A stretch of DNA of 64,000 nt, from the NCBI GenBank assembly GCA_963664015.2, contig CAXXLF010000001.1, forward strand, positions 992,001 to 1,056,000, read 5' to 3'. The stretch comes from Candidatus Binatia bacterium. GTDB lineage: Bacteria; Desulfobacterota; Binatia; UBA9968; CAXXLF01. Under the pieces are notes generated by a model, which saw only the letters and a program-made list of their open reading frames with translations, did no database searches and had not been told where the DNA came from. This document shows, piece after piece, positions 8,389-21,770 of this stretch (position 1 is the stretch's first letter; every line of letters starts with the position of its first letter). The translations under genes and the position numbers were made by a program.

Positions 8389-8612
8389 AGCTCTTTCTCC
8401 TCTAGCCGCTTGTTATCGCTTGGCATCAGTTAAACAGGACCCCGTGCCCGAGTACAAAGGGCAACGTGTTCCGGATAACACGCGCGGCCTGACCGAGTCA
8501 AGGTAACCCGTGGACTTGGTAGCCGACATCAGGGGATTCTTGACATAGCATGCCAAGTCTGCTGTATTCAGGTTTCTTTCCCATACCGACTTCGAGAAAG
8601 GATTACGATTCC

Positions 8613-9407
8613 ATGGAAGATTTTGTCGCCCTCAGAAAACGGGCAAGTGAGATGTACGAGAAAAACACGTCACCCAGGCACTCCCCGTACTTTCCGCCTG
8701 CTCCGACCACGTTTCTCTCCCCGGAAGAGTTTCTGGCCCAGTTGGCTGAAGCGGTCTTTGTCAATTCTCCCAAAGTCCAGCACCCCTTTGTGGTCAAGCT
8801 GGTCAAAGGGGAGTGGAGCCTCAAACAGATTCAGGAATGGGCCAAGGAAGGGTACCACGACAAGGTCCAGACCATCCGCAACGATGCCATGATTGTCGCC
8901 ACGGCCCCGACCCTGGAAGAAATGAAGAAACAGGCAAGCGTCCTAGCCTGTGAGGTCGGAATCGAGAGCGGCGGCGAGCCCAGTCACCCGGAACTCTGGC
9001 TCCAATTCGGTGAGGCCATGGGGCTCACGAAACAAGAAATCATGAATTCCAAGCCCACGGCAATCACCGAGATCGTACTAACAGCGGAGCATGCCCGTTC
9101 CATGATGCAAAAGATCGGCGGTCTGCCGGCCAACCTGCGCTTGGGTGAACGGGTCACCTCCATCGTCTACTCAATCTGGGCGGAGGCCCTGAGGAAGAAT
9201 TACAACGTGTCCAAGGAAGGGGTCTCTTTCTTTACCTCCCATGAAGAGGCCGACGAAGACCACAGCGACATCGGCAAGCAGATCGTGCTCTCCCGTGCAA
9301 CGACTCGGGAGGCGCAATTGGAGATGTGGCACCATCAGGAGCGCTCCGGTGCCCGGCAATGGGTCAGCTACGACGGCTACTACCAAGCCGCCACGCGGGT
9401 CCAGTAG
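8613..9407 (+). CDS. heme-oxygenase-like diiron protein (CADD/PqqC/TenA superfamily)
   Basis: HPFV, E..(x)..HPELWLQFGEAMGL, GE, FFTSHEEADEDH match CADD-type ligand spacing; ATG 8613 has AAAGGA RBS (track start 8550). Confidence 0.8.
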   Translation: MEDFVALRKRASEMYEKNTSPRHSPYFPPAPTTFLSPEEFLAQLAEAVFVNSPKVQHPFVVKLVKGEWSLKQIQEWAKEGYHDKVQTIRNDAMIVATAPTLEEMKKQASVLACEVGIESGGEPSHPELWLQFGEAMGLTKQEIMNSKPTAITEIVLTAEHARSMMQKIGGLPANLRLGERVTSIVYSIWAEALRKNYNVSKEGVSFFTSHEEADEDHSDIGKQIVLSRATTREAQLEMWHHQERSGARQWVSYDGYYQAATRVQ

Positions 9408-9430
9408 AATTCTGAACCCTACAAACCGCC

Positions 9431-10273
9431 CTAGGAAGCAGTTCGCCAAGAATAACACGGTTGCCAATGGAGCATTCGTTTTGCCTTCTCGTTGGATACG
9501 CCGGACCGGGTCCCCGTTAAGTCTTTTGCCATAGGGCCCAGATCGGGCATTAAGCGCGGCAAGAGATCACACAAGGGCTCACTGCTAACGCTATCGTCTG
9601 CAACGATGTAAAAGACCTCATGGTTCAACCCAGGCACCTCCACCGCCTGTCGGTATGCGGTGGCGAGATCCCGGACATCGATATAGGCGAAGACATCAAA
9701 CCTCTGGGGTTTCCGCCCCCCTTGGGTCCGTAGCCGATCGCTTTCCTCCGGGATCATGACCCACGCAGGGCGCAGGGCAATTGTCTCCATGCCGCATTTT
9801 AAAGTATAACCGCGGGCCACCGCCTCCCCACAGAGCTTGGAGAGTCCATAGGGATCCTGCGGTGAGACCGGGTGTTCTTCATCAATGGGTAGATACTCAG
9901 GCCGCAACTCTCGCGTTCGGTAGGTCCAACCGACTATGGCGCCACTGCTCGTCGAGACTACACGTCTGATGCCCAGGCAGGCCGCCGCCTCATGGACATT
10001 ATAGGTACCCACCGTATTAGTACGGAATAGAACGTGATTAGGTGCCTCCCGGTAAGGCATGGCGAAGGCCGCCAAATGCACGACCGCGTCGGCGCCGAGC
10101 AAAACACTCATGACGTCGCCGAAGTCTTCGATATCGCCTCTCACCCATTGACAACCCTCGGCGGGTGGCGGCGGGACCCGATCAAAGACAGTAACTTGGT
10201 GCGAAGCCCCTAACAGTTCCCGGACAACGTATTGCCCTATCTTCCCCGATCCTCCAGTAACAACAACCTTCAA
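9431..10273 (-). CDS. NAD-dependent epimerase/dehydratase (extended SDR)
   Basis: VTGGSGKIG, VVHLAA, YGLSK. Confidence 0.88.
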   Translation of the reverse strand: MKVVVTGGSGKIGQYVVRELLGASHQVTVFDRVPPPPAEGCQWVRGDIEDFGDVMSVLLGADAVVHLAAFAMPYREAPNHVLFRTNTVGTYNVHEAAACLGIRRVVSTSSGAIVGWTYRTRELRPEYLPIDEEHPVSPQDPYGLSKLCGEAVARGYTLKCGMETIALRPAWVMIPEESDRLRTQGGRKPQRFDVFAYIDVRDLATAYRQAVEVPGLNHEVFYIVADDSVSSEPLCDLLPRLMPDLGPMAKDLTGTRSGVSNEKAKRMLHWQPCYSWRTAS

Positions 10274-10486
10274 AGTGTTCCCTCCCTGAACTCATGCAAC
10301 GGGCGAAGCCGGCGGTTGCCGTAGCCCGACGGCACATAAAATGTACAAACGCTATATCCCTATTGTCCATTACAGTCAAACTAACCTAGTCCGCGCCTTA
10401 TCCGAGGATATCGATACACCAACCGGAGGTTGACACCACATAGTTTTATTGCCATGTATTCAAGGAATCTTCGGGAGCGATATATT

Positions 10487-11356
10487 ATGTTAAAGCCATT
10501 TCGGCTTCTCGAACCCGACACGGTCGCCGAGGCAGCGGCCGAGCTGGTTGGGGAAGAAACAAAAATATATGCGGGGGGAGCCGAGCTTCTCTTGCTGCTC
10601 CGCCACGGGCTCTTGGACGCAGCAACTCTGGTCAACATCAAACGGATCGCCAGTCTCAACGAGGTCAGTTGGGACGGTAGCAACCTCCGCATCGGGTCCA
10701 CGGTGACGCATCACAGGCTGGAGACGCATCCCCTGGTCCGAGAGCACCTCCCGATGCTGGCCCAGGCCGAGTCCCACATTGGAAACATTCGCGTCAGAAC
10801 CCAGGGAACTCTGGGGGGCAACCTCTGTTTCGCCGACCCCCACGCCGATCCGGCGACGGCGCTGCTGGTTCATGAAGCTACGGTAACCGTCGCGGGGAAA
10901 GAGACAAACCGCCAATTGGGCATGAAAGAGTTCCTAGTTGGTATGTACGAGACGGCCCTTCAACCGGACGAGCTACTCACCCAGGTCCAGGTCCCTCCCT
11001 TACCGGCGGGCTGGGGGCACGCCTATTTGAGAATCGAGCGCTTCTACCGGCCAACGGTCAATGTCGCCGCAGCGGTCCGATTGAGTGATGGAAAACTCGA
11101 TGGTGTTCGACTGGCCGTAGGATGTGTCGGTCCTAAGGCTCAACGGTTACAGGAATTGGAAGCCAAGATCTCCGGATTGCCGTTAGAAGAAGCCGAACGG
11201 GTGGTTACCGAATCCAAGCCCTATATCACCGACGAACTCCATCCGGTGGATGATCTCCTCGGATCGGCCGACTACAAGATTCACGTCACCAGCGTGCTGC
11301 TGAAAAAGGCCTTGGGCCAATCGCTCCGCAACGGAGGGGAAGCCAAACATGGATGA
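10487..11356 (+). CDS. Mo-hydroxylase FAD-binding medium subunit (CoxM/CutM/XdhB-like)
   Basis: AGGAELL, IGNIRVRTQGTLGGNL..ADP..D, SADYK; ATG 10487 with GGGAG RBS. Confidence 0.9.
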   Translation: MLKPFRLLEPDTVAEAAAELVGEETKIYAGGAELLLLLRHGLLDAATLVNIKRIASLNEVSWDGSNLRIGSTVTHHRLETHPLVREHLPMLAQAESHIGNIRVRTQGTLGGNLCFADPHADPATALLVHEATVTVAGKETNRQLGMKEFLVGMYETALQPDELLTQVQVPPLPAGWGHAYLRIERFYRPTVNVAAAVRLSDGKLDGVRLAVGCVGPKAQRLQELEAKISGLPLEEAERVVTESKPYITDELHPVDDLLGSADYKIHVTSVLLKKALGQSLRNGGEAKHG

Positions 11357-11855
11357 AAAGCCTGAAGAGCTGAAGACTCTGCAATCGATCGAGATTTCCC
11401 TGACGGTTAATGAGAAGACGTGGAGTGGAGAGGTCCCCGTAGAAGAAGTCCTGTTAGACTTTTTAAGATACCGAGTAGGGCTGACCGGCACCAAGCGTTC
11501 GTGTGAATCCCAGGTGTGCGGCGCCTGCACCGTTCTCGTTGGCAATCAACCAATCAGCTCCTGTAGTTACCTAGCCTTTGAGGCCAATAACCGATTGGTG
11601 ACAACGGTAGAGGGGTTAGCAGTAGGAGAACAGTTGGATCCTCTTCAGTCAGCCTTTATTCGCAATGTGGGGACCCAGTGCGGGTACTGCACCCCTGGAC
11701 AATTGATGGCCGCCAAGGGCCTCTTGCTGCACAACCCGACTCCCACCTACGAACAGATCGCCGAATGGATGAAGGGAAACATTTGTCGCTGCGGCTGCTA
11801 CCCGGCCATCGCTCAATCCATCCTCGAAGCTGTCGAGGAGCGCCAGAAGCCCTAG
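11349..11855 (+). CDS. Mo-hydroxylase [2Fe-2S] small subunit (CoxS-like)
   Basis: GTKRSC..QVCGACTV, QCGYCTPG, GNICRCGCY. Confidence 0.92.
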   Translation: MDEKPEELKTLQSIEISLTVNEKTWSGEVPVEEVLLDFLRYRVGLTGTKRSCESQVCGACTVLVGNQPISSCSYLAFEANNRLVTTVEGLAVGEQLDPLQSAFIRNVGTQCGYCTPGQLMAAKGLLLHNPTPTYEQIAEWMKGNICRCGCYPAIAQSILEAVEERQKP

Positions 11856-11857
11856 AC

Positions 11858-13300
11858 CTAAGGCTTGTCGGCTGCTCCCAATATATGGAACAGGTGCCGG
11901 GCAAAGTCCGTGTTGTCCTGGTAGCCGCGGAAGCGATGAGCCCCCACTCCTAGAGCTCCGACAAAGACAGGCTGATGGGTATGCCCTCTTCCCACCCAGA
12001 ATGCCTGCGTGTTGTGTCCCACCATCGCCCCCAGTGCAGCAGCGCGCCAGTTGGAATAGAAAGTTGGTCCCAACGGCTTGTTTTGGATCAGCATCTGTTT
12101 GAGCTCCGGTGGCAAATGGAAGCCAGGATAATAGTCTGCCATAAGCCTGTCCACATCGTTGGCGGTTGGATGTTGGCCCAGGATCTTTAACGCCTTGCTG
12201 ATCGAGATTCGAATAGACCGGATTCTTTCCAGACTCCATGTAGATGGGAAGATCCGGTTTTCCCGGCCCCGTAATCCCAGCGCCTTGGCAGCACCCGTAA
12301 AAGCAAATCCTCCGGTCTCGTGGTCCGACGTAACTAGAACGAGGGTTTCCGTCGGATGCCTTTGATAGAAATCGTAAGCCAGCGCAACCGAATGATCGAA
12401 GACACGGAACTCATGGATCACGGATGCTACATCCGACAGGTGAGCGGCGCTATCGATATTTTCGTTCTCGACAAACATAACAAACCCGTCCTTCTTCTGC
12501 TGCAGAAGGCGGAGCGCCTCGCGGGTCATGTCCAGGACCGACGGTTCCCGATCCTTCGGCCGGTCCAGCTCGAAGCTCATATCCTTCATGCCGAACAGGC
12601 CCAACACCTTGGGCCCCTGAACCCCTTCGACTCCCCTCCGATCGGATACGTAGGCGTAACCTTTATCCTTGAATTCGGCGATGACATCCCTGTTGTCTTT
12701 CCTCTCACTCCCCTCGCGTGAGGAAGGCAAAAAGCCACTTCTCCCCCCACCCATCAAGAGATCCGGTTCCAGCCGTAGATAGGCGTCGATGATTTCTGCG
12801 GTGAGCGCCCTCTTGGGCACATGGGCACTAAATGCCGCGGGGCTGGCATCATAGACGGTTGAGTTCGTTATCAGCGCCAGCCTCATACCCTTCTTTTTGG
12901 CAAGCTCCATGACCGACAGGGGATGACTACCATCAGCGCAGATTCCGACAACCCCAATGTTTGCCTTACAGCCATTGGCCAAGGCCGTCGCAGAAGCCCC
13001 TGAGTCCGTGGTGAGAGATTCTACCGAGTGGGTTGTCATCAAACCGAGGGTTCCCTGGCTGAAGATGCGGTCCACGATACTGAAATCCTCTTGATGCATC
13101 CGCCGGTTGTACAGTCTCGCGGCTTCTAGGTGGTTTACCCCGGCACCGTCAGCTAAAAAGATAAAAATGTATTTAGGTTTCTGGGACAAGGGAGCTTCCA
13201 TGGCCTCCCCCCGGATCGGTATAACGAGCAAGACCGCAGCAACTAGAATGATCACTTCTAGCGCCCGCAGTCGTCCTTTCGAAGTGTCTTTTCTCATCAT
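11858..13300 (-). CDS. alkaline phosphatase (PhoA family), secreted
   Basis: Signal peptide, IFLADG, TDSGASATA (active Ser), ENIDSAAH, TSDHETGG, GHT. Confidence 0.88.
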   Translation of the reverse strand: MMRKDTSKGRLRALEVIILVAAVLLVIPIRGEAMEAPLSQKPKYIFIFLADGAGVNHLEAARLYNRRMHQEDFSIVDRIFSQGTLGLMTTHSVESLTTDSGASATALANGCKANIGVVGICADGSHPLSVMELAKKKGMRLALITNSTVYDASPAAFSAHVPKRALTAEIIDAYLRLEPDLLMGGGRSGFLPSSREGSERKDNRDVIAEFKDKGYAYVSDRRGVEGVQGPKVLGLFGMKDMSFELDRPKDREPSVLDMTREALRLLQQKKDGFVMFVENENIDSAAHLSDVASVIHEFRVFDHSVALAYDFYQRHPTETLVLVTSDHETGGFAFTGAAKALGLRGRENRIFPSTWSLERIRSIRISISKALKILGQHPTANDVDRLMADYYPGFHLPPELKQMLIQNKPLGPTFYSNWRAAALGAMVGHNTQAFWVGRGHTHQPVFVGALGVGAHRFRGYQDNTDFARHLFHILGAADKP

Positions 13301-13377
13301 CCCCTCAAAGGCTCAAGCACGAAATGTAAGGGTTGGACTGAATCCCAGCGAAGGCGGCGCAAAATCGGTGGTGTCAT

Positions 13378-14073
13378 TTAGAAGAGGTACCCGTGCCGCC
13401 TGGCTTCCAACCAGAACGATAGCAGCAAATAGTAGACGGGGAAGACCAACGAGACAAGATTAAGCGACATAAACGTTTCCGGCAGGCTATAGATGATGAC
13501 TAAGATGCTGATCCCCCAAAGCCCCCCCAAGCCCAGGGTCAGTCCACGAAGGGAAAGGTTACGGCTGGGATAGAGGTACCGGATCGGGATAAAGACCAAC
13601 AGGGAAAAAATGATAATCACGGTAGTGTTGAACCAGACCGGGCTCCCGAGAACGTATAGATAGAACACTACAACATTCCAATACGAAGGGAACCCCAGGA
13701 AAAAATGATCTGCGGTCTTGGCATCCGTTTGGCAGAATCCATAGGCACTGGCAACTAGAGGGAGAGCGACCAAACCCATAGCGGCCTCCTGCGGCAGCAG
13801 TTGGGCCCAGAACATGAAAACACACGGAACCAACACATAGTTCAAATAATCAACGATGTCATCCAGCCGGGCCCCATCGAAACACGGGAGCAACTCTTTC
13901 ACACGGAACTTACGAGCCAAGGTTCCATCGGTAGCATCGATCAGAACCGCAACCGACATGAGGGAGAGGGATTCCTTAAATTGGGCGTGAACGATAAAGA
14001 AGATTGCGGCAAAGGCAAGGATGGCCCCGATGGCACTATAGAGATGCACCAACCAGGCCAGTAATAACTTCAA
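13378..14073 (-). CDS. pcs: phosphatidylcholine synthase (CDP-alcohol phosphatidyltransferase)
   Basis: AWLVHLYSA, IDATDGTLARK..V, FDGARLDDIVDYLNYV, HFFLGFPSYWNVV, YLYPSR typical of Pcs. Confidence 0.78.
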   Translation of the reverse strand: MKLLLAWLVHLYSAIGAILAFAAIFFIVHAQFKESLSLMSVAVLIDATDGTLARKFRVKELLPCFDGARLDDIVDYLNYVLVPCVFMFWAQLLPQEAAMGLVALPLVASAYGFCQTDAKTADHFFLGFPSYWNVVVFYLYVLGSPVWFNTTVIIIFSLLVFIPIRYLYPSRNLSLRGLTLGLGGLWGISILVIIYSLPETFMSLNLVSLVFPVYYLLLSFWLEARRHGYLF

Positions 14074-14088
14074 AACAAGCTCGCAGCT

Positions 14089-14697
14089 TTAAGTCGCTGA
14101 CTCCGCAAAGCTCGGCCTGGCTCTAAGCCGCGCCAACCAAGCGATCATATTTTTGAATTTGGCGTCGATAGAGATCTCCAAACGCCCGATGAGGTCCGCG
14201 TTCGGCATAAAGGCGATGTCCGCCAGGCTGAAGCTACCGGCCAAATATTCCCGACCTTCCAGCTCTTTTTCAATACAATCAAAACAGACGACAATTTTTT
14301 TCTTGGCGTTATCGATGAGGGCCGTATCTCTTTCGCCCTCGACCTTGAATACAATTTGGTGAATAATCTCCATAAAGGGAGGATGGAAGTGGCTATCCCT
14401 ATAATCCTCCATCATGCGCGCCCGCGCCCGGCCTTCCGAATCTTCAGGCATAAGGGGAGGATGAGGATACTCGTCCTCTAGGTACTCGTTTATGATGGTC
14501 GAATCGTAGATAATGAACCCATCGTCATCCAATGCGGGCACCTGACCAAAGGGGTTAAGACTTAAAAAATCTGCATTTTTCTGTTCGTTTTTCATGAGAT
14601 CGACGTTAACCCGCTCGAACTCCAAGCCTTTTTCAATCAGGACAATCCTTACCTTTCGGGAGTTGGTGGAAGTGGGAAAGGTATAAAGCTTCATCAA
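14089..14697 (-). CDS. glutathione S-transferase
   Basis: SRKVRIVLIEKG, LNPFGQVPAL, DSTIINEYL, YLAGSFSLADIA. Confidence 0.92.
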   Translation of the reverse strand: MMKLYTFPTSTNSRKVRIVLIEKGLEFERVNVDLMKNEQKNADFLSLNPFGQVPALDDDGFIIYDSTIINEYLEDEYPHPPLMPEDSEGRARARMMEDYRDSHFHPPFMEIIHQIVFKVEGERDTALIDNAKKKIVVCFDCIEKELEGREYLAGSFSLADIAFMPNADLIGRLEISIDAKFKNMIAWLARLRARPSFAESAT

Positions 14698-14809
14698 TGC
14701 TCTCCTCCGCGGCCGTCACTTAGAACGCTATACCGTCTTGTCTATAAAAACAGAATACCACAAAATGACCGCCCCCTGCATCATGATTTTTCATTTATTT
14801 CAGGCTTAA

Positions 14810-14838
14810 TTGTCCGCCTTTCAGCAATTTGCTACATT
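14810..14838 (+). promoter_or_regulatory. putative sigma70 promoter for the glutaredoxin
   Basis: TTGTCC-N17-TACATT with extended -10 TG at 14830-14831. Confidence 0.4.
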
Positions 14839-14884
14839 ATCCAGAGTACGGAATTTTAGGGATAATTGACGAAGGGAGTCTAAA

Positions 14885-15118
14885 ATGGCCCAGCCAGTGG
14901 TGGTATTTACCCAACCCGGTTGAGGTCCCTGCCAGAGAGAGAAGGAGTTTCTTTCTCAAAAGGGTATCCCCTTCGTGGATAAGAACGTACGGGACGACCA
15001 ACAGGCCCTGAAAGAGCTTTTGAACCTGGGTTATTGCAGTACTCCTGTAACCCTGATCGATGGGGAAGCCCTAGTCGGGTTCGATCCGGTCAAGCTGGAA
15101 GGGATGTTGGGCGAATGA
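14885..15118 (+). CDS. glutaredoxin/NrdH-like selenoprotein, 77 aa, UxxC motif (in-frame TGA at 14921-14923)
   Basis: Manual translation MAQPVVVFTQPG-U-GPCQREKEFLSQKGIPFVDKNVRDDQQALKELLNLGYCSTPVTLIDGEALVGFDPVKLEGMLGE*; TGA sits at the first Cys position of CxxC; GGAG RBS at 14875-14878; missed by the ORF track. Confidence 0.88.
14924..14964 (+). promoter_or_regulatory. bacterial SECIS-like hairpin
   Basis: 11 nt after UGA: stem GAGAGAGAA (14935-14943) / TTCTTTCTC (14949-14957) with one G-U, G-first loop GGAGT, lower stem CCCT/AGGG. Confidence 0.75.
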
Positions 15119-15133
15119 AGTCCCGCCCCTGAT

Positions 15134-15835
15134 TCACTTGATCTGGGACTTCCATCCTGAGGAGCTAAGCATCTTCCCCGTCACCCCCTTGGATTCATCG
15201 CCGGCCAGGAATACGAAGGCATCAGTGACGGAGTCGGGAGGACTTCCCGTAAAGCCGGTGAGTTTTGTCGCCACGTAGCCCGGATCCACCGAATTGACGC
15301 GAATCTTGTGGGACCGGACCTCCGCAGCCAAGGTCTGGGTCAAGCCTTCGATCCCCCATTTGGACACCGCATAGGCAGAGAAATTGGCATAGGCCCCTCG
15401 TCCAATGGTTGAAGATACATTAACGATGGAACCGTTCCGCTGACGCATCATAATAGGGAGAATCGCCCGGGTCACAAGAAAGGCTCCCCGTAGATTCACA
15501 GCTAGAGTATAGTCCCATTTCTTCACTTCCATCTCAGCAAGAGGAACAGGACGGGTCATAACCCCGGCATTGTTGACGAGGACATCGATCCGGCCGAAGC
15601 GCTCTTCGATCTTAGCAACCAAGCGGGCGACAGATTCCTCCACAGAGACGTCACAGACAATTCCGAGACAATCCCGTTCCAGATTATAGATCTCACTGGC
15701 CGTCTGTTCGACCTCGGAACCGGTTCGAGCGCATACGGCAAGCCTCATACCCTGCCGCGCATACGCCATAGCCACAGCCTTACCGATACCCCTCCCGGCA
15801 CCTGTTATCAGCGCTACCTTTCCCTCAAGTTTCAT
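15134..15835 (-). CDS. SDR family oxidoreductase
   Basis: ITGAGRGIG, LVNNAG, YAVSK; ATG 15835 with GGAG RBS. Confidence 0.9.
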   Translation of the reverse strand: MKLEGKVALITGAGRGIGKAVAMAYARQGMRLAVCARTGSEVEQTASEIYNLERDCLGIVCDVSVEESVARLVAKIEERFGRIDVLVNNAGVMTRPVPLAEMEVKKWDYTLAVNLRGAFLVTRAILPIMMRQRNGSIVNVSSTIGRGAYANFSAYAVSKWGIEGLTQTLAAEVRSHKIRVNSVDPGYVATKLTGFTGSPPDSVTDAFVFLAGDESKGVTGKMLSSSGWKSQIK

Positions 15836-15917
15836 ACAGGACTCCACCTAATCAAATCTAATTTTCTCAAATATACAGCGTGACGGTCAGGCTGCCAACT
15901 AGTTTGGATAGGAAGCC

Positions 15918-15939
15918 TCCACGGGCTAACGCCCGTGGA
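15918..15939. repeat. perfect 9-bp hairpin resembling an IS200/IS605-type end or REP-like repeat
   Basis: TCCACGGGC-TAAC-GCCCGTGGA, preceded by GGAAGCC. Confidence 0.5.
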
Positions 15940-16101
15940 CTCCTTCCATTCTTCAGCGGAATCCGCGGTCGCACCCTTCTTGCTACTCCGCCGAAGCGGC
16001 TGCTTCAGCTGCAAAGGCGGAAAAAGCACTTAACAACAACTCCCGCGTAAGCGAACATCAGGCGAATATTCATCATGATAATCGAAAAAAGTTGACGCCC
16101 C

Positions 16102-17153
16102 GTGAACAAGACTCCGCTTCGTAACCGTGGCGCCAGCAAAAATCCGCCCAATCGGTTCGAGAGACTGTGGGTCGATCAATGTCCGGATGGGAACGAGCTA
16201 GTAAACCCCCTTACGCAATACCTCAAAGACCCCTCCCGTACGATCATCAGTACCAACGACAGCCCCGACGTCGGCTTCACCACCAGTATTATCCCTAACG
16301 GGGCTGCGAGCATGGTTGCGCCTATTGCTACGCCTGGCCCAGTCACGAATATTTGAATTTTTCTGCTGGTCTAGATTTTGAATCCAAAATTCTTATCAGG
16401 GAGAAGGCCCCCGAACTTCTGCGGCAGGTCCTGATTTCACCCCGGTGGACCCCACAGGTCCTCGCCATGTGCGGCGTCACAGACCCCTATCAACCCGTGG
16501 AGCGAAGCCTTGGCCTCACGCGGAGATGCCTGGAGGTTCTGGCCGAGTTTAATAACCCGGTAGCAATCGTCACCAAGAGCGTTCTGGTTACAAGGGACGT
16601 GGACATTTTAAGCGAGCTCGCCAGCCACAATGCCGCGGCCGTCTTCCTATCGATTACCACCCTGGATACTAACCTGGCCCGCCGATTGGAACCCCGGGCC
16701 TCCCAGCCTTTGCTCCATCTCAGGGCCATCGAGTCTTTGCGCCGTACCGGGGTACCTTCCGGTGTCATGGTTGCCCCAGTGATTCCCGGCCTGACTGACC
16801 ACGAGATCCCCGCGATCATCAGCGCTGCGGCACATGCTGGGGCTGAATCCGCGGGCACCGTGGTCTTGCGGTTACCTCATGGAGTCAAAGATTTGTTTGA
16901 GCAATGGCTGACACAGCACTTTCCCGATAAGAAGGCTAAAGTGATGAACCGGATCTGGGCAATTCGAAACGGTAAACTGAACGATTCGAGGTTCCGTAGC
17001 CGTATGAAGGGTGAAGGGATCTTTGCCAATCAGATAGCCTCTCTCTTTTCCAGTGCTTGCCGAAAAGCAGGGATTCACCACCGCCTCCCTGAACTCTCAA
17101 TAGCCTCATTCCGGCGCCCCACCGAGGGTCAGCTCACCCTGCTCGACGATTGA
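16102..17153 (+). pseudogene. PA0069-family (SplB-like) radical SAM protein, disrupted
   Basis: RGA..NPPNRFE, SPDVGF in ORF1; CEHGCAYC is in the ORF2 frame directly after TAA 16296-16298; 1-bp loss near 16291 relative to the SINPYRGC consensus. Confidence 0.85.
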
Positions 17154-17381
17154 GAATTTGGGACTCGGTACAGCAGCCCCCCACTCCTTTAAACTAATTC
17201 CCCTCCATTCCCTAATAGCCAGGATTCTACACTGAATCCATTTTTCCTCGATATTATGTTCCCCTTATTTGGACCTTGATTTTCCTTTTTTTCCATCACG
17301 TTTGCTCATAAGAAGCCGCACGGGAGGTTTCTGTTAGCTAGAAACACCCTATTTTATAGTGGGTTAGCGGCCTGCCCGGAG

Positions 17382-17398
17382 TTGGCATATTCCTAGCT
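17382..17398 (+). promoter_or_regulatory. putative sigma54 (-24/-12) promoter of the MlaC-like gene
   Basis: TTGGCAT-ATTCC-TAGCT; GG-N10-GC. Confidence 0.5.
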
Positions 17399-17459
17399 TG
17401 ATTAAAGATCCGGGATCAATTCTCGCAGATTATTCTACCGGAAACCAAGACAAGAAGGG

Positions 17460-18119
17460 ATGATGAGGTCAAAGTTTAGAACTCTGATCACTTACACGCT
17501 TTGCGTCAGTTTCCTCCTATTTCAGGTGCCCGGCGCTCGCAGTGAGAGCGAGGGTCCCCTGACTGGACAAATACGTACCACCGTCGAGAAGGTGCTCGGA
17601 ATTCTCGAAAATTCGACACCAAACAATCCTTCCACCAGTGCAAAAAGCGATCTTGAAAAAAAGCAGATGCAGCAGGCCGAGATGGCCTACCGTAGCCAAC
17701 TCCGTAAAGCGATCTTTCCCCAGTTCGACTTTCCTGAAATGGCAAAGCGATCCTTGGGTCTCAACTGGCGTCCACGGACTCCTGGGGAACAGGAAGAGTT
17801 TGTCGAGATATTTACCGGTCTTCTAGAAGACTTTTTTAGCGATAACCTCAAGTCCTTTAAAGACGAAAAGTTTGTTTACATGGACGAGAGTCAAAAGGGC
17901 AAATACGCCAAAGTCGATACCATGATTGTGACCAAAGAAGGAGAAGAGATCAGCCTCAAGTACATGCTTCACCAAGTGGACGAAGACTGGAAGGTGTACG
18001 ATATGGTGATCGAGAATGTCAGTCTAGTAAAAACTTACCGCTCTCAGTTTAACAGAATTATTGCCAATGCATACTACCAAGAGCTCGCACGAAGAATTAA
18101 TAAAGTAGGTGAAAAGTAA
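17460..18119 (+). CDS. MlaC/Ttg2D family phospholipid-binding periplasmic protein
   Basis: Signal peptide, FDFPEMAKRSLG..W, WKVYDMVIENVSLVKTYRSQF. Confidence 0.88.
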   Translation: MMRSKFRTLITYTLCVSFLLFQVPGARSESEGPLTGQIRTTVEKVLGILENSTPNNPSTSAKSDLEKKQMQQAEMAYRSQLRKAIFPQFDFPEMAKRSLGLNWRPRTPGEQEEFVEIFTGLLEDFFSDNLKSFKDEKFVYMDESQKGKYAKVDTMIVTKEGEEISLKYMLHQVDEDWKVYDMVIENVSLVKTYRSQFNRIIANAYYQELARRINKVGEK

Positions 18120-18154
18120 CCGCCGGGCCGGCTCTCTGGCGACCAGCAGCACTC

Positions 18155-18529
18155 TTAACGACTCATTAACTTTAAAAGTATCAATGTCTTCTGAACGGCC
18201 TCCTTGGCCTCCTCTGCAGCCTTTTTAGCTTCCGCCGCCGCCACGGCAGCCTCTTCTGCAGCGGCCTGGGCCCTCATGGCAGCGGAGTCAGGATCACTCG
18301 ACGTAGCACCTACCTTTTCAGCGGCCTTATTGGCCCTCGCTGCAGCAGCTTGCATCCGTGCCAGCGTTTTTTCCATTCGTTTTACTGCTTTTTCTGCCCT
18401 TGCCGCCGCACGTTTAGCTTTACTGGCCTCTTTTTGAACGGCAACAGTAGTCGGAGGAACCGTTGTTAAAGGTGCACAGCCCCCTGCATATAGGGATACC
18501 AATATCGCACCAAAGGCTAATTGAAACAA
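18155..18529 (-). CDS. alanine-rich coiled-coil (alanine-zipper-like) lipoprotein
   Basis: Hydrophobic signal with AGGC lipobox, then AARAEKA/AAARANKAA/AAEEAA repeats; start codon uncertain. Confidence 0.6.
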   Translation of the reverse strand: MFQLAFGAILVSLYAGGCAPLTTVPPTTVAVQKEASKAKRAAARAEKAVKRMEKTLARMQAAAARANKAAEKVGATSSDPDSAAMRAQAAAEEAAVAAAEAKKAAEEAKEAVQKTLILLKLMSR

Positions 18530-18651
18530 CGTCCCCTTTGGTTCTAGCCCATGGGGTTTCCTCCTTCATGACAGTTGAAAACCTGCTCCCTGAAATACCT
18601 AAATGCTCGTTATCGATCCGCAGAGAACTCGTGCATTCACGAAAAACTAAA

Positions 18652-18668
18652 CGCAATAATCCTGCCAA
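18652..18668 (-). promoter_or_regulatory. putative sigma54 promoter of the lipoprotein gene
   Basis: Minus strand TTGGCAG-GATTA-TTGCG, close to consensus TGGCAC-N5-TTGC. Confidence 0.6.
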
Positions 18669-18748
18669 GGACTGGTGCCCCCCCCCCCGACGTCGATGGA
18701 CAAGGGGCCAGTGGCACGAAACTCCCAGAACCGGGGCCTGGACGGCTA

Positions 18749-19540
18749 TCACTCTGGAGCGAAACGATTGAGTGTCATTGAAGCGGATGGGGCTTGAGCA
18801 ACGGTCTGCTCATACTTGACTTCAACGAGGAATAAGCCCTGCGGGGGTGCTGTGGGACCGGCGAGGGTTCGGTCTCCCAACTTTAGAAGTGCAGCAAATT
18901 CGGACGGCGTCCGTTCGCCCCAACCGACCTCCATGAGCGTCCCAACGATGTTGCGCACCATATGTCTCAGGTAGGCATTGGCCTCAATCCGGTAAACAAG
19001 TAGATCGCCATCACGAGTTAAGGTGCTGGAATGGACTCGACGGATAGGATGTGCCGCATCACAGCCGGAAGCCTGGAAGGAGGAAAAGTCATGCTCACCC
19101 TCGAGGGCGGCCATGGCCTCTTCCATGGCAGTGAGATCCAACGGGCGATGGACATGGCAGGTGAACCGACGGAGCAGCGCGGAAGCCCATCGCCCATTCC
19201 AAATACGGTACTCATACAATCGGCTTCGCGCGTCCCTGCGCGCATCAAATGAGTCCGCGGCCGATTCGAGTTCCTTGACAGCTATATCAGGGGGCGTCAA
19301 AGCGTTAAGCCCTCGCTGGAGTTTCCTAAGATCCACTGGGCGAGGACAGTGAAGGTGTGCCACCTGACCTGCCGCGTGGACCCCTGCATCGGTTCGACCG
19401 GAGGCATGAAGCCGAACCTTTTCACGCAGGATCTCACAGAGAGCCCCCTCCAATACTTCCTGGACAGTCCGCCCATTGGGCTGAATTTGCCAACCATGAT
19501 AGTCAGTCCCGTCGTACTCAATGATAAGCTTGAGGTTCAT
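18749..19540 (-). CDS. truA: tRNA pseudouridine(38-40) synthase
   Basis: YDGTDYHGWQ, SGRTDAGVHA, YLRHMVRNIVG, TAPPQGL. Confidence 0.97.
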   Translation of the reverse strand: MNLKLIIEYDGTDYHGWQIQPNGRTVQEVLEGALCEILREKVRLHASGRTDAGVHAAGQVAHLHCPRPVDLRKLQRGLNALTPPDIAVKELESAADSFDARRDARSRLYEYRIWNGRWASALLRRFTCHVHRPLDLTAMEEAMAALEGEHDFSSFQASGCDAAHPIRRVHSSTLTRDGDLLVYRIEANAYLRHMVRNIVGTLMEVGWGERTPSEFAALLKLGDRTLAGPTAPPQGLFLVEVKYEQTVAQAPSASMTLNRFAPE

Positions 19541-19554
19541 TGGAAAGCCCGAAT

Positions 19555-19617
19555 TTCAGAAGTCAGGAATCAGCAAAGCCGGACCGGACTCCGGCTACTG
19601 GCAACTGAACTACTGAA
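19555..19617. repeat. heptamer-periodic inverted repeat (TCAGnnn / nnnCTGA arms)
   Basis: TTCAGAAG TCAGGAA TCAGCAA AGCCGGA ... TCCGGCT ACTGGCA ACTGAAC TACTGAA. Confidence 0.55.
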
Positions 19618-19623
19618 TGCTCC

Positions 19624-20646
19624 TTAGAGGTAATCCCGTATCAGGATTTCGGCAATTTGAACGGCGTTAAGAGCAGCGCCTTTGCGCAGATTGTCGGCGA
19701 CGACCCAGAGATTCAGCCCATTGGATACAGAATCATCCTCCCGAATTCTCCCGACGAGAGTTGCATCAGTGCCCACGCAATTAATGGCCATGGGGTAGAC
19801 GTTCGCCTCCGGATCGTCACACAGAAGGATACCGGGAGCGGTGCGGAGGATAGTTTTGACGTCCTGAACCGTCAGTTTTTTTTCAGTCTCGATATTAACC
19901 GATTCCGAATGACCACAGAAGACCGGAACGCGAACCGTCGTGGCGGTCATGCCCATGGAAGGCTCTCCCAGGATTTTGCGCGTCTCGTTGATCATTTTAT
20001 CCTCTTCTTTCGTGTAGCCGCTTTCAAGAAAGGTATCGATATGAGGAATGCAGTTAAAGGCGATCTGGTATGGAAATTTTACCGGCTTGACGTCTGTACC
20101 ATTGAAAAGTGAGATCGACTGTTGGCTCAATTCCTCCATGGCCTGCCTCCCTGCGCCGGAAACCGCCTGATAAGTAGAAACCACCACTCGTTTAATCCGT
20201 GCAGCGTCATGGATAGGCTTGAGCACCACCACCATTTGAATGGTAGAGCAGTTGGGGTTGGCAATAATTCCCCGTTCAGGATACTGACCAATATCTCCCG
20301 CATTGACCTCAGGGACCACTAGAGGAACTTCCGGTTCCATCCGAAAATGGGAGGTGTTGTCGACAGCCACGGCACCGCTTTCTACGGCGATAGGCGCAAA
20401 CCGGGCACTGACCGTTCCGCCAGCGGAAAAGAGCGCGATATCCACGTCCTGGAACGAATCCTCCTTGAGCTCCTCAACTCGGATCCTCTTGCCGGCGAAT
20501 TCCAACACTTGACCGGCCGACCTTGAGGACGCCAGAAGACGCAGCTCCTTGACAGGGAAGAGCCTTTCTTGCAAGATCTCGCGCATCTGCTCGCCCACCG
20601 CCCCCGTGGCTCCAACCACAGCAACTCTGTATTTATCTCTCTTCAT
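19624..20646 (-). CDS. asd: aspartate-semialdehyde dehydrogenase
   Basis: GATGAVG, IIANPNCSTIQM, DNLRKGAALNAVQIAE. Confidence 0.97.
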   Translation of the reverse strand: MKRDKYRVAVVGATGAVGEQMREILQERLFPVKELRLLASSRSAGQVLEFAGKRIRVEELKEDSFQDVDIALFSAGGTVSARFAPIAVESGAVAVDNTSHFRMEPEVPLVVPEVNAGDIGQYPERGIIANPNCSTIQMVVVLKPIHDAARIKRVVVSTYQAVSGAGRQAMEELSQQSISLFNGTDVKPVKFPYQIAFNCIPHIDTFLESGYTKEEDKMINETRKILGEPSMGMTATTVRVPVFCGHSESVNIETEKKLTVQDVKTILRTAPGILLCDDPEANVYPMAINCVGTDATLVGRIREDDSVSNGLNLWVVADNLRKGAALNAVQIAEILIRDYL

Positions 20647-20687
20647 GCCTTATCACCCCGGCTCGCAATCAGTTTGGTCTTCTCAGT

Positions 20688-21770
20688 TTAGCTTTTTATT
20701 TTCTCCCTCACCCTCTCGCCCATTTCCACACAGCCGATCAAGCGTCCTCCTTCTTGTTGGATATCCGCCGTCCGAAACCCTTCATCCAGGACCTCTTCCA
20801 CAGCCTTTTCGATCCGGTCTGCCGCCTTTTCTTGACCGAACGAGTGGCGAAGCATAAGGGCAACGGTCAAAATGGTAGCGAGGGGATTGGCCATGTCCCG
20901 GCCTGCGATATCCGGGGCACTGCCGTGAACGGGCTCGTACATGCCCACTTTACCCCCAAGACTCGCCGATGGAAGCATTCCGATAGAACCTGTCAACATC
21001 GCCGCCTCATCGCTGAGAATGTCACCGAACAAATTGGTGGTCACAATGACATCGAATTGCTTCGGACTCCGAATCAGCTGCATCGCACAGTTGTCGACCA
21101 GCAAATGGTCGAGCTGAATGTCCCGAAAGCTCTCTTCCCCGTGGACTCGAGTCACGACCTTGCGCCAAAGCTCAGTCACCTCGAGTACATTGGCCTTATC
21201 CACCGAGGTTACCTGTTTCCTCCGCCTCTGTGCCGCCTCAAAGGCAACCCGCGCGATGCGCTCTATCTCGGGGGTCGTATAAACCATCGTATTGACACCA
21301 CGCTCCGACCCATCGGACACTGTGGTCACCCCCTTGGGCTCGCCGAAATAAATACCACCGGTCAATTCTCGCACCACGACGAGATCCGTACCCTCTACGA
21401 CCTCACGTTTAAGCGTCGATGCGGAACTCAATGCAGCAAACAGCTTGACCGGACGCAGGTTGGCAAAGAGTCCCAACTCACGGCGCAAGGCCAGCAGGGC
21501 TCGCTCGGGGCGGACTGAATACTCCAATCCCTCCCATTTGGGTCCACCCATCGCCCCCAAAAGGACCGCTTGGCTCTGCTGGGTCAACTGTAGCACCGAA
21601 TCCGTCAGCGGCTGTCCAGTAGCATCGATGGACGCCCCACCGACCAATCCCTCTTCATATTCCACGTAAAATCCGTAAAGGGACGCCACCTGACTCAGGA
21701 CTTCGGTGCCCTGCTTGACCACCTCCGGGCCGATTCCATCACCGGGAAGAACCGCAATCTTATAGTTCAT
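20688..21770 (-). CDS. leuB: 3-isopropylmalate dehydrogenase
   Basis: LPGDGIGPEV, VRELTGGIYFG, NLFGDILSDEA, YEPVHGSAPDIAG. Confidence 0.97.
   Translation of the reverse strand: MNYKIAVLPGDGIGPEVVKQGTEVLSQVASLYGFYVEYEEGLVGGASIDATGQPLTDSVLQLTQQSQAVLLGAMGGPKWEGLEYSVRPERALLALRRELGLFANLRPVKLFAALSSASTLKREVVEGTDLVVVRELTGGIYFGEPKGVTTVSDGSERGVNTMVYTTPEIERIARVAFEAAQRRRKQVTSVDKANVLEVTELWRKVVTRVHGEESFRDIQLDHLLVDNCAMQLIRSPKQFDVIVTTNLFGDILSDEAAMLTGSIGMLPSASLGGKVGMYEPVHGSAPDIAGRDMANPLATILTVALMLRHSFGQEKAADRIEKAVEEVLDEGFRTADIQQEGGRLIGCVEMGERVREKIKS

Follow-up and report, generated by a model that had tools for sequence, protein, structure and literature searches.

Is the glutaredoxin-like frame at positions 14885-15118 of this window, which carries a TGA as its 13th codon, a broken gene, or does it encode a selenoprotein? 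By the window we mean the whole stretch of DNA analyzed, 64,000 nucleotides (nt) from a Candidatus Binatia bacterium. The original prediction, made from the letters alone, held that the frame encodes a glutaredoxin (Grx) in which UGA is recoded as selenocysteine (Sec), with the help of a Sec insertion sequence (SECIS) hairpin located within the gene. The analysis described here leads us to conclude, with high confidence, that the region encodes a 77-residue thioredoxin-fold Grx of the YruB/cGrx1 type in which Sec is the nucleophile. What the data show is the gene itself, its conserved UGA and hairpin, the Sec machinery of the genome, and the fold; we infer from homology and from the known bacterial pathway the insertion of Sec, the substrates and the reductant.

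The elements of the gene are arranged as follows, each with the kind of evidence behind it.

14872..14878, + strand: Shine-Dalgarno-like AAGGGAG, 6 nt 5' of the ATG (direct sequence reading)
14885..15118, + strand: predicted selenoprotein Grx coding sequence, 77 residues, YruB/cGrx1-like, stop included (translation, PF00462, match to 7c10, AlphaFold model)
14921..14923, + strand: UGA codon 13, probably read as Sec, the attacking residue of U-G-P-C (conservation across loci)
14930..14932, + strand: TGC codon 16, the resolving Cys of UxxC (invariant in the 34-sequence alignment A2)
14935..14957, + strand: SECIS hairpin inside the coding sequence (single-sequence fold, comparative pairing, frozen synonymous sites)
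15041..15046, + strand: codons T53-P54, the cis-proline loop position of thioredoxin-fold proteins (conservation in A2, model)
15116..15118, + strand: terminating TGA, with no hairpin behind it (sequence)

The start codon, ATG at 14885-14887, opens 77 sense codons in frame, and GGAG-type purine-rich motifs likewise precede the start in the loci of 19 relatives. With TGA translated as U, the product starts MAQPVVVFTQPGUGPCQREKEFLSQKGIPF and continues STPVTLIDGEALVGFD; written around the Sec residue, it is MAQPVVVFTQPG-U-GPC-QREKEFLSQKG, followed by STPVTLIDGEALVGFD. A frame preceded by a ribosome-binding site, with TGA at codon 13 where the nucleophile of a CxxC motif belongs, can accordingly be read directly from the DNA, with the active site U-G-P-C, as the original prediction had it. 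Its further statement, that the list of open reading frames (ORFs) misses the gene and reports an out-of-frame shadow only, holds for the list made with translation table 11 and a minimum of 60 amino acids (aa), in which the only ORF at the locus is the out-of-frame 14829-15011 (60 aa); it fails at a minimum of 40 aa, where an in-frame C-terminal remnant is added (14975-15118, GTG start, 47 aa). In the loci read, the orthologues terminate at the matching place, by TAA, TAG or TGA.

The read-through product matches the Pfam Glutaredoxin model PF00462 with 45.6 bits (cut-off 22.9, E 8e-12) over profile positions 1-58 of 60, nearly the whole profile. By sequence, the nearest solved structure is PDB 7c10 (E 1.9e-15), which aligns from residues 1-76 to 1-76 and contains Cys at positions 13 and 16. 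An AlphaFold model built on the A2 alignment has a predicted local distance difference test score of 88.5 and consists of strand 5-9, helix 14-26, strand 30-34, helix 39-47, strands 55-58 and 61-64, and helix 68-75; residue 13 is positioned at the N-terminus of helix 1, directly ahead of helix 14-26. The top Foldseek match of the model is 7c10_A, "Dithiol cGrx1" (template modeling score, TM, 0.93/0.96; root mean square deviation 0.9; 44% identity), followed by Bacillus cereus BC3987 and then by NrdH redoxins, with the top matches comprising Grx, NrdH and thioredoxin folds. Two hallmarks of the thioredoxin fold are seen in the model, namely a C/UxxC motif where helix 1 starts and a conserved proline preceding strand 55-58. 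Position 13 (Cys or Sec), C16 and P54 are invariant in A2, and T53 is at least 90% conserved; the T53-P54 pair directly precedes strand 55-58, and P54 would be in cis, judging from the fold family. Among the NCBIfam models, YruB (TIGR02196) is the best match for all 34 aligned members; the scores of the window protein with the NrdH model TIGR02194 (52.2 bits vs 85.75) and the Uxx-star model NF041212 (45.1 bits vs 66) are below the cut-offs. The window protein also contains an extra Cys at codon 51 (15035-15037; GYCSTP), two residues ahead of the T53-P54 loop. This position is mostly occupied by Q, R, S or M in orthologues, L044 has a Cys at residue 50, and P0008, a near-identical 47-aa database entry, has R where the window protein has Cys51.

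The TGA codon itself is highly conserved. When the read-through protein was searched against the genomes of 40 relatives (three families of one order), the best match contained exactly one in-frame TGA in every case; 38 of these matches cover nearly the full length, with 57-82% identity, another runs off the end of its contig, and the last is a paralogue at 44%. In all 20 loci that were read (the window and 19 relatives), the TGA is codon 13, within a U-[G/E/P]-P-C motif. Close relatives that all had TGC or TGT at this codon, with no conserved hairpin, would have spoken against the original prediction; what is found instead is one in-frame TGA in all best matches, at codon 13 in all loci read, and a conserved hairpin. 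A wider scan, with one genome per species and record labels that include Ca. Binatia, Deltaproteobacteria, Methylomirabilota/NC10, Acidobacteria, Armatimonadetes, Chloroflexota and others, yielded 49 loci, from which L071 was left out (its match begins at residue 23). Codon 13 in the remaining 48 loci, from named metagenome-assembled genomes (MAGs), is TGA in 43 and Cys in five (L081, L086-L089), a ratio not to be taken as a population estimate given that the scan employed query-derived peptide patterns, one of them PCQREKEF, with the attendant bias toward look-alikes. A database protein, P0007, with PSCGPC and 62% identity, completes a Sec/Cys pair. Of 201 genomes sampled across the phylum, only 2 contain the gene (E <= 1e-15), so within this sample it appears to be a trait of this order and not of the phylum.

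Codon usage was counted in 43 sequences, after L083, which contains a one-codon insertion, had been dropped. Codons 2-12 keep their amino acids and vary synonymously: Q10 is Q in 43 of 43 (CAA in 12, CAG in 31), and P11 and G12 are encoded by three and four different codons, respectively. Both flanks of the TGA are under purifying selection at the protein level. These observations bear on the simplest alternative, that an ordinary gene for a Cys-containing Grx carries the TGA through nonsense mutation, as a pseudogene lesion, or owing to an error of sequencing or assembly. A single base separates TGA from TGC and TGT, and gene callers do treat the frame as broken, such that 66 of the 72 database relatives are fragments of 43-68 aa. 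Against such an accident stand the recurrence of TGA at codon 13 in every locus read and in 43 of the 48 named loci, the purifying selection on both flanks, and contigs from the runs of two studies, either of which may be the source of the window, that match the whole 1601-base stretch with 0 differences. Because of the comparative data, this alternative is effectively refuted, its probability being close to nil, and the TGA is neither an accident nor an assembly slip.

The same flanks bear on a second alternative, in which the real product is a short protein that starts after the TGA, with the 12 upstream codons and the hairpin serving as a leader or regulatory element. The in-frame GTG ORF 14975-15118 could encode such a protein, and many of the stored relatives are of similar size, 47-67 aa. 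A protein of 47 aa would be missing strand 1 and helix 1 together with the active site; the amino acids of codons 2-12 are retained under synonymous drift, the ribosome-binding site precedes 14885, and the alignment to cGrx1 is full length, from residue 1. We consider the short product extremely improbable.

Two sets of observations on the homologs are worth recording here. In one Chloroflexota-labeled MAG, two contigs (L081:2995-3225 and L085:2995-3225) carry a pair of paralogues with Cys (TGT) and Sec (TGA), respectively; their downstream DNA is nearly identical and the Cys copy L081 retains the hairpin, pointing to a recent exchange of Sec and Cys, in either direction. Additional Grx-like matches with one in-frame TGA, for example G037:C2:86177-86374, G035:C105:2806-3006 and G009:C10:5288-5491, sit within long open frames of about 250-360 aa and may represent fused Grx-domain selenoproteins; a search of the window's own genome with the read-through protein found no TGA-containing Grx copy of this fused type.

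The hairpin downstream of the UGA can be drawn in two registers. The original prediction described a 9-base-pair (bp) stem with a G-first loop, beginning 11 nt after the UGA, and this slipped register is indeed possible in the window (14935-14943 paired with 14949-14957, loop GGAGU). The stem and loop are real; the register that is conserved is shifted by 4 nt, with an 8-bp stem (14939-14946 paired with 14950-14957) and the loop GUU at 14947-14949. Alone, the window hairpin folds with -8.5 to -9.0 kcal/mol; judged on this single sequence it does not stand out statistically, the native codons being among the best 228 of the 6912 synonymous encodings of R-E-K-E-F-L-S-Q. For comparison, 44 Sec forms were used, comprising the window and 43 loci, in which the conserved stem corresponds to alignment columns 19-26 paired with 30-37. 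In this stem, 90.2% of the cells are paired, a value reached in none of 500 shuffles and falling to 46-78% when the partner is slid; both-sided changes occur at three pairs, in 10 cells. Folded individually, all 44 Sec forms have a hairpin of 7-9 bp with a loop of 3-5 nt, a G within the first two loop bases and a UGA-to-loop spacing of 22-23 nt, and in 39 of them the 23-nt piece alone reaches -7.5 kcal/mol or lower. The bacterial SECIS (bSECIS) model, as given in the legend to Fig. 2 of a recent review, specifies a loop of 3-9 nt, a stem of 4-16 bp, a G in the first two loop bases, a distance of 16-37 nt from the UGA, and a minimum free energy of at most -7.5 (PMC13188914); the geometry agrees in 44 of 44 and the energy in 39 of 44. 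The window hairpin also resembles the bSECISearch consensus, with a 3-nt loop (5 nt in the slipped register), a stem of 8-9 bp, a loop in which G comes first and U follows, and 20-23 nt from the UGA to the loop.

The strongest evidence for the hairpin comes from the frozen synonymous sites. In the stem, GAG encodes E19 in 29 of 29 sequences and E21 in 42 of 42, and CTT encodes L23 in 41 of 43, with the two CTA exceptions paired to K20V (GTA) in the opposite arm; the codon entropy is 1.8-2.3 bits at other Leu codons, and GAA is freely used at the other Glu codons. Compensation is seen not only between K20V (GTA) and L23 CTA but also between E19V (GTG) and S24 TCA, and E21A/F22W (GCG TGG) preserves a C-G pair. 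These patterns are pertinent to a third alternative, under which the hairpin is a by-product of the conserved E-K-E-F-L-S peptide without a role in decoding, and Sec, if inserted at all, depends on another signal. The peptide is indeed prone to pairing, as 436 of the 6912 synonymous encodings reach -7.5 kcal/mol, and both the hairpin of the Cys paralogue L081 and the lack of an RNAalifold consensus are in keeping with this interpretation. A peptide-driven by-product does not account for stem synonymous sites that are frozen where the same amino acids vary freely elsewhere in the gene, for amino acid changes in one arm that are matched by silent changes in the other, or for the absence of the hairpin in four of the five Cys forms. 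We give this alternative very little credence; the comparative data indicate that the hairpin is more than chance and favor the 8-bp register with the GUU loop, and this organism's SelB is predicted to bind it. Two further structural candidates were rejected: a lower stem (columns 7-10 with 41-44), which is only 77.4% paired, with pair 9/42 broken in 24 of 42, is not claimed, and a sub-threshold match to Rfam PYLIS_3 (18.4 bits vs 38, E 0.22) was taken as chance.

The genome of the window encodes the machinery that such a gene would require. All four of selA, selB, selC and selD, for which the original prediction had advised searching and whose absence would have spoken against it, were found with scores above the curated or gathering cut-offs. 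The scores are 606 bits for selA, 409 for selB and 373 for selD, three genes that are adjacent on contig 2; the tRNA-Sec (74 bits, ARAGORN anticodon TCA) is encoded about 10 kb downstream.

G000:C2:1306534-1312057: selA, selB and selD in the window's own genome (G000)
G000:C2:1322535-1322625: tRNA-Sec gene of the same genome (with the preceding loci listed as L008, L001, L009, L012)

The selD gene itself contains a TGA in frame (KAAG-U-AAK), and 33 nt beyond it comes a hairpin with an 8-bp stem, whose GUU loop is identical to that of the Grx SECIS; on this sequence evidence, selD is a second, independent case of putative Sec use in the genome. Among the 40 relatives, selB is above the cut-off in 37. 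TGA also closes 18 of the 47 open frames of at least 250 codons in the window, 4 of the 14 annotated ORFs, and the Grx gene itself, so it is otherwise an ordinary stop codon here, and the code is not a changed one.

These results can be set against the possibility that UGA13 is decoded not as Sec but as Trp, Gly or Cys, through a changed code or near-cognate read-through. Bacteria are known to decode UGA at a low level with near-cognate tRNAs, and four database relatives have W at position 13, as a result of calling with TGA as Trp. The termination of so many long frames, and of the Grx gene, by TGA argues against such decoding, as do the complete Sec machinery, the selD gene of the same genome, which uses the same device, and the location of the UGA exactly at the redox-active Cys position with a hairpin of bSECIS type behind it. 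Decoding as another amino acid seems to us very improbable, and the proposal that this organism recodes UGA as Sec is well supported by the sel machinery, the conserved TGA13 and the conserved hairpin. A loose scan of the window for further U..C or C..U frames returned 110 candidates, mostly noise.

Several observations weigh against the Sec-Grx interpretation and should be taken together. In three of the 40 relatives with the TGA gene, selB is not above the cut-off; two of these genomes consist of 440 and 640 contigs, with 92% and 81% completeness, and the third, G005, has 240 contigs and 100% completeness, so that incompleteness is no explanation for it. The 55-nt single-sequence fold of the window is not exceptional (z = -1.24, with 20 of 200 shuffles at least as stable), and on the short piece five of the 44 hairpins fall short of -7.5 kcal/mol. 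Nor is the hairpin confined to Sec forms, as it is present in the Cys form L081. RNAalifold found no consensus structure in the 44 Sec-form segments, since the register is off by one in six of them, and pair counting was done on the named structure in its place. No NCBIfam model reaches its curated cut-off with the window protein, the best being TIGR02196 at 67.2 bits vs 88.55. The look-alike bias of the wider scan belongs in the same account. A scan of the + strand yielded neither a sigma-70-like promoter nor a terminator. Finally, a 170-nt contig from an RNA library spans 14895-15061 with 0 differences, and it includes only 26 nt 5' of the TGA, below the 31 letters that the search tool requires; such libraries may contain DNA, and this contig is at most a weak hint of transcription and no proof of it.

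In the bacterial pathway, SelB together with GTP and Sec-tRNA(Sec) binds a SECIS hairpin located 3' of the UGA. Combining this pathway with the parts found in the genome, the decoding of the Grx mRNA can be pictured as follows. When the ribosome arrives at UGA13, the hairpin within the E-K-E-F-L-S codons, 22-23 nt downstream, would be bound by SelB carrying GTP and Sec-tRNA(Sec), and Sec would be inserted in place of termination; the TGA at 15116, which is not followed by a hairpin, would terminate translation. If the chemistry follows that of the homologous cGrx1, Sec13, seated at the start of helix 1, would then attack a substrate disulfide or sulfenic acid, and Cys16 would resolve the mixed bond, yielding an intramolecular selenenylsulfide that would be re-reduced, most likely, by glutathione.

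Comparison with known systems places the protein in a known category. In the review mentioned above, glutaredoxin (PF00462, UxxC) is catalogued as a bacterial selenoprotein family (PMC13188914), and the window protein, by its domain and motif, fits this definition exactly. A 2006 survey lists Sec-Grx in three genomes only, among them Geobacter sulfurreducens, Alkaliphilus metalliredigenes and Moorella thermoacetica (Zhang et al. 2006, PMC1794560); the relatives detected here, in contrast, are labeled Ca. Binatia, Methylomirabilota, Acidobacteria, Armatimonadetes and Chloroflexota. The closest characterized counterpart is Clostridium oremlandii cGrx1, described as a native selenoprotein with U13 and C16, studied as U13C/C16S constructs (PMC4479559), and as a U(C)PXC oxidoreductase that is the proposed reductant of a selenoprotein MsrA and is recycled by glutathione (PMC7642778). 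The cGrx1 protein (PDB 7C10, 7C12, 7C13) and the window protein are of the same length class, share about 44-45% identity over residues 1-76 and have Sec13/Cys16 in common; both contain the PV...IDxE..VGFD core, and cGrx1 is the best structural match. The two differ in the active-site dipeptide, which is G-P in the window protein and P-H in the 7c10 chain, and in lineage. The "tandem Sec" pairing of Grx and MsrA, as in the cGrx1 system, is not reproduced here because both MsrA genes of the window's genome lack TGA, and no msrA was found within the flanks examined (window 8550-21770). The second MsrA match (L093, G000:C2:1608665-1609078; 172 bits) contains one in-frame TAG inside the matched stretch and may represent one damaged gene, a pair of genes, or a match that was joined wrongly.

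Other relatives are more distant. YruB (TIGR02196) is the best-scoring model, albeit below its cut-off, and is not a selenoprotein model. The second structural neighbor, B. cereus BC3987 (PDB 3ZIJ/3ZIT), has a TM of 0.87-0.91, and the NrdH redoxins (PDB 4FIW, 1H75, 4HS1), of the same minimal fold and size, 0.83-0.85. The hallmark motifs of NrdH are CVQC and WSGFRP, neither of which is present in the sequence of the window protein, and no ribonucleotide reductase genes are found among the neighbors examined in the window flanks. The UXX-star selenoproteins (NF041212, NF041211, NF041114) are similar in their Grx-like fold and use of Sec, with weak matches that are all below the cut-offs; by the names of these families, Sec is located three residues before the stop, whereas in the window protein it is residue 13 of 77, in an N-terminal UxxC. 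The window gene is, then, a member added to a known kind, Sec-Grx having been catalogued since 2006, with one representative characterized biochemically and structurally. Within the collection of papers searched, no report joins Binatia with selenocysteine or YruB with a selenoprotein; the supplements of selenoproteome surveys may list the clade.

With respect to the reductant, glutathione is plausible for the Sec-Grx because gshB is present in the genome (380.8 bits, above the cut-off), a glutathione S-transferase (GST) gene adjoins the Grx gene, and the homologous cGrx1 is described as using glutathione; the classical CPFC Grx of the genome, treated below, points the same way.

14089..14697, - strand: GST gene, divergent from the Grx gene, context only (Pfam GST_N and GST_C)

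The next-best structural neighbors, BC3987 and the NrdH redoxins, receive their electrons from thioredoxin reductase and not from glutathione, and a thioredoxin reductase route as in NrdH may also serve the Sec-Grx. The GST and short-chain dehydrogenase/reductase (SDR) neighbors accompany the Grx gene only in the closest relatives, and this limited synteny is too little for claiming a functional link. Upstream of the GST gene, the window contains an alkaline phosphatase gene (11858-13300, - strand) and an ORF without a Pfam match (13378-14073, - strand), and CoxM/CoxS-like genes, for a FAD-binding molybdopterin dehydrogenase subunit and a [2Fe-2S] subunit, are located at 10430-11855. The sole sigma-70-like intergenic match, at 14853-14882 on the - strand, is directed toward the GST gene and overlaps the Grx ribosome-binding site; with one such site found vs 0.5 expected, it is no evidence of a promoter. 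The genome also encodes a classical dithiol Grx paralogue (L040, G000:C1:236604-236825), with CPFC, TVPQIF and GG motifs and no internal stop, which is 30% identical to the Sec form.

In public protein sets, this gene and its relatives are stored wrongly, mostly as shortened entries. Besides the 66 fragments, the 72 database relatives include one 92-aa entry with a mistaken start, four full-length entries with Trp at position 13 (P0002-P0005, QPGWGPC), and one true full-length Cys form; the contigs of P0002-P0005 were evidently called with a code in which TGA is Trp. Such annotation failure of selenoproteins is described in the review (PMC13188914). When a Sec-Grx is stored in this way, redox inventories of these lineages miss the most reactive thiol/selenol oxidoreductase. 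Conceptually, the result is unsurprising, given that Sec-Grx have already been catalogued and one has been characterized; what is gained is a correctly read selenoprotein in the genome of an uncultured lineage, and an organism recognized as a Sec user by its sel genes, its Sec-SelD and its Sec-Grx.

A broader proposition can be advanced, if tentatively, as one that we think somewhat doubtful at this stage: the window gene may belong to a coherent "QPGU" clade of YruB/cGrx1-like Sec-Grx that spans at least five phylum labels (Binatia/Deltaproteobacteria-type, Methylomirabilota, Acidobacteria, Armatimonadetes, Chloroflexota), shares a single SECIS, GAGAARGAGUUUCUUUCUC, that hardly varies and keeps the same spacing to the UGA, has no curated model, and is truncated in nearly all public entries. 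If such a clade is real, the identity of the SECIS across phyla would suggest that gene and SECIS have been transferred horizontally as a unit more than once, and that the SelB proteins of distant phyla follow one recognition rule, the GUU loop, as in the selD of this genome.

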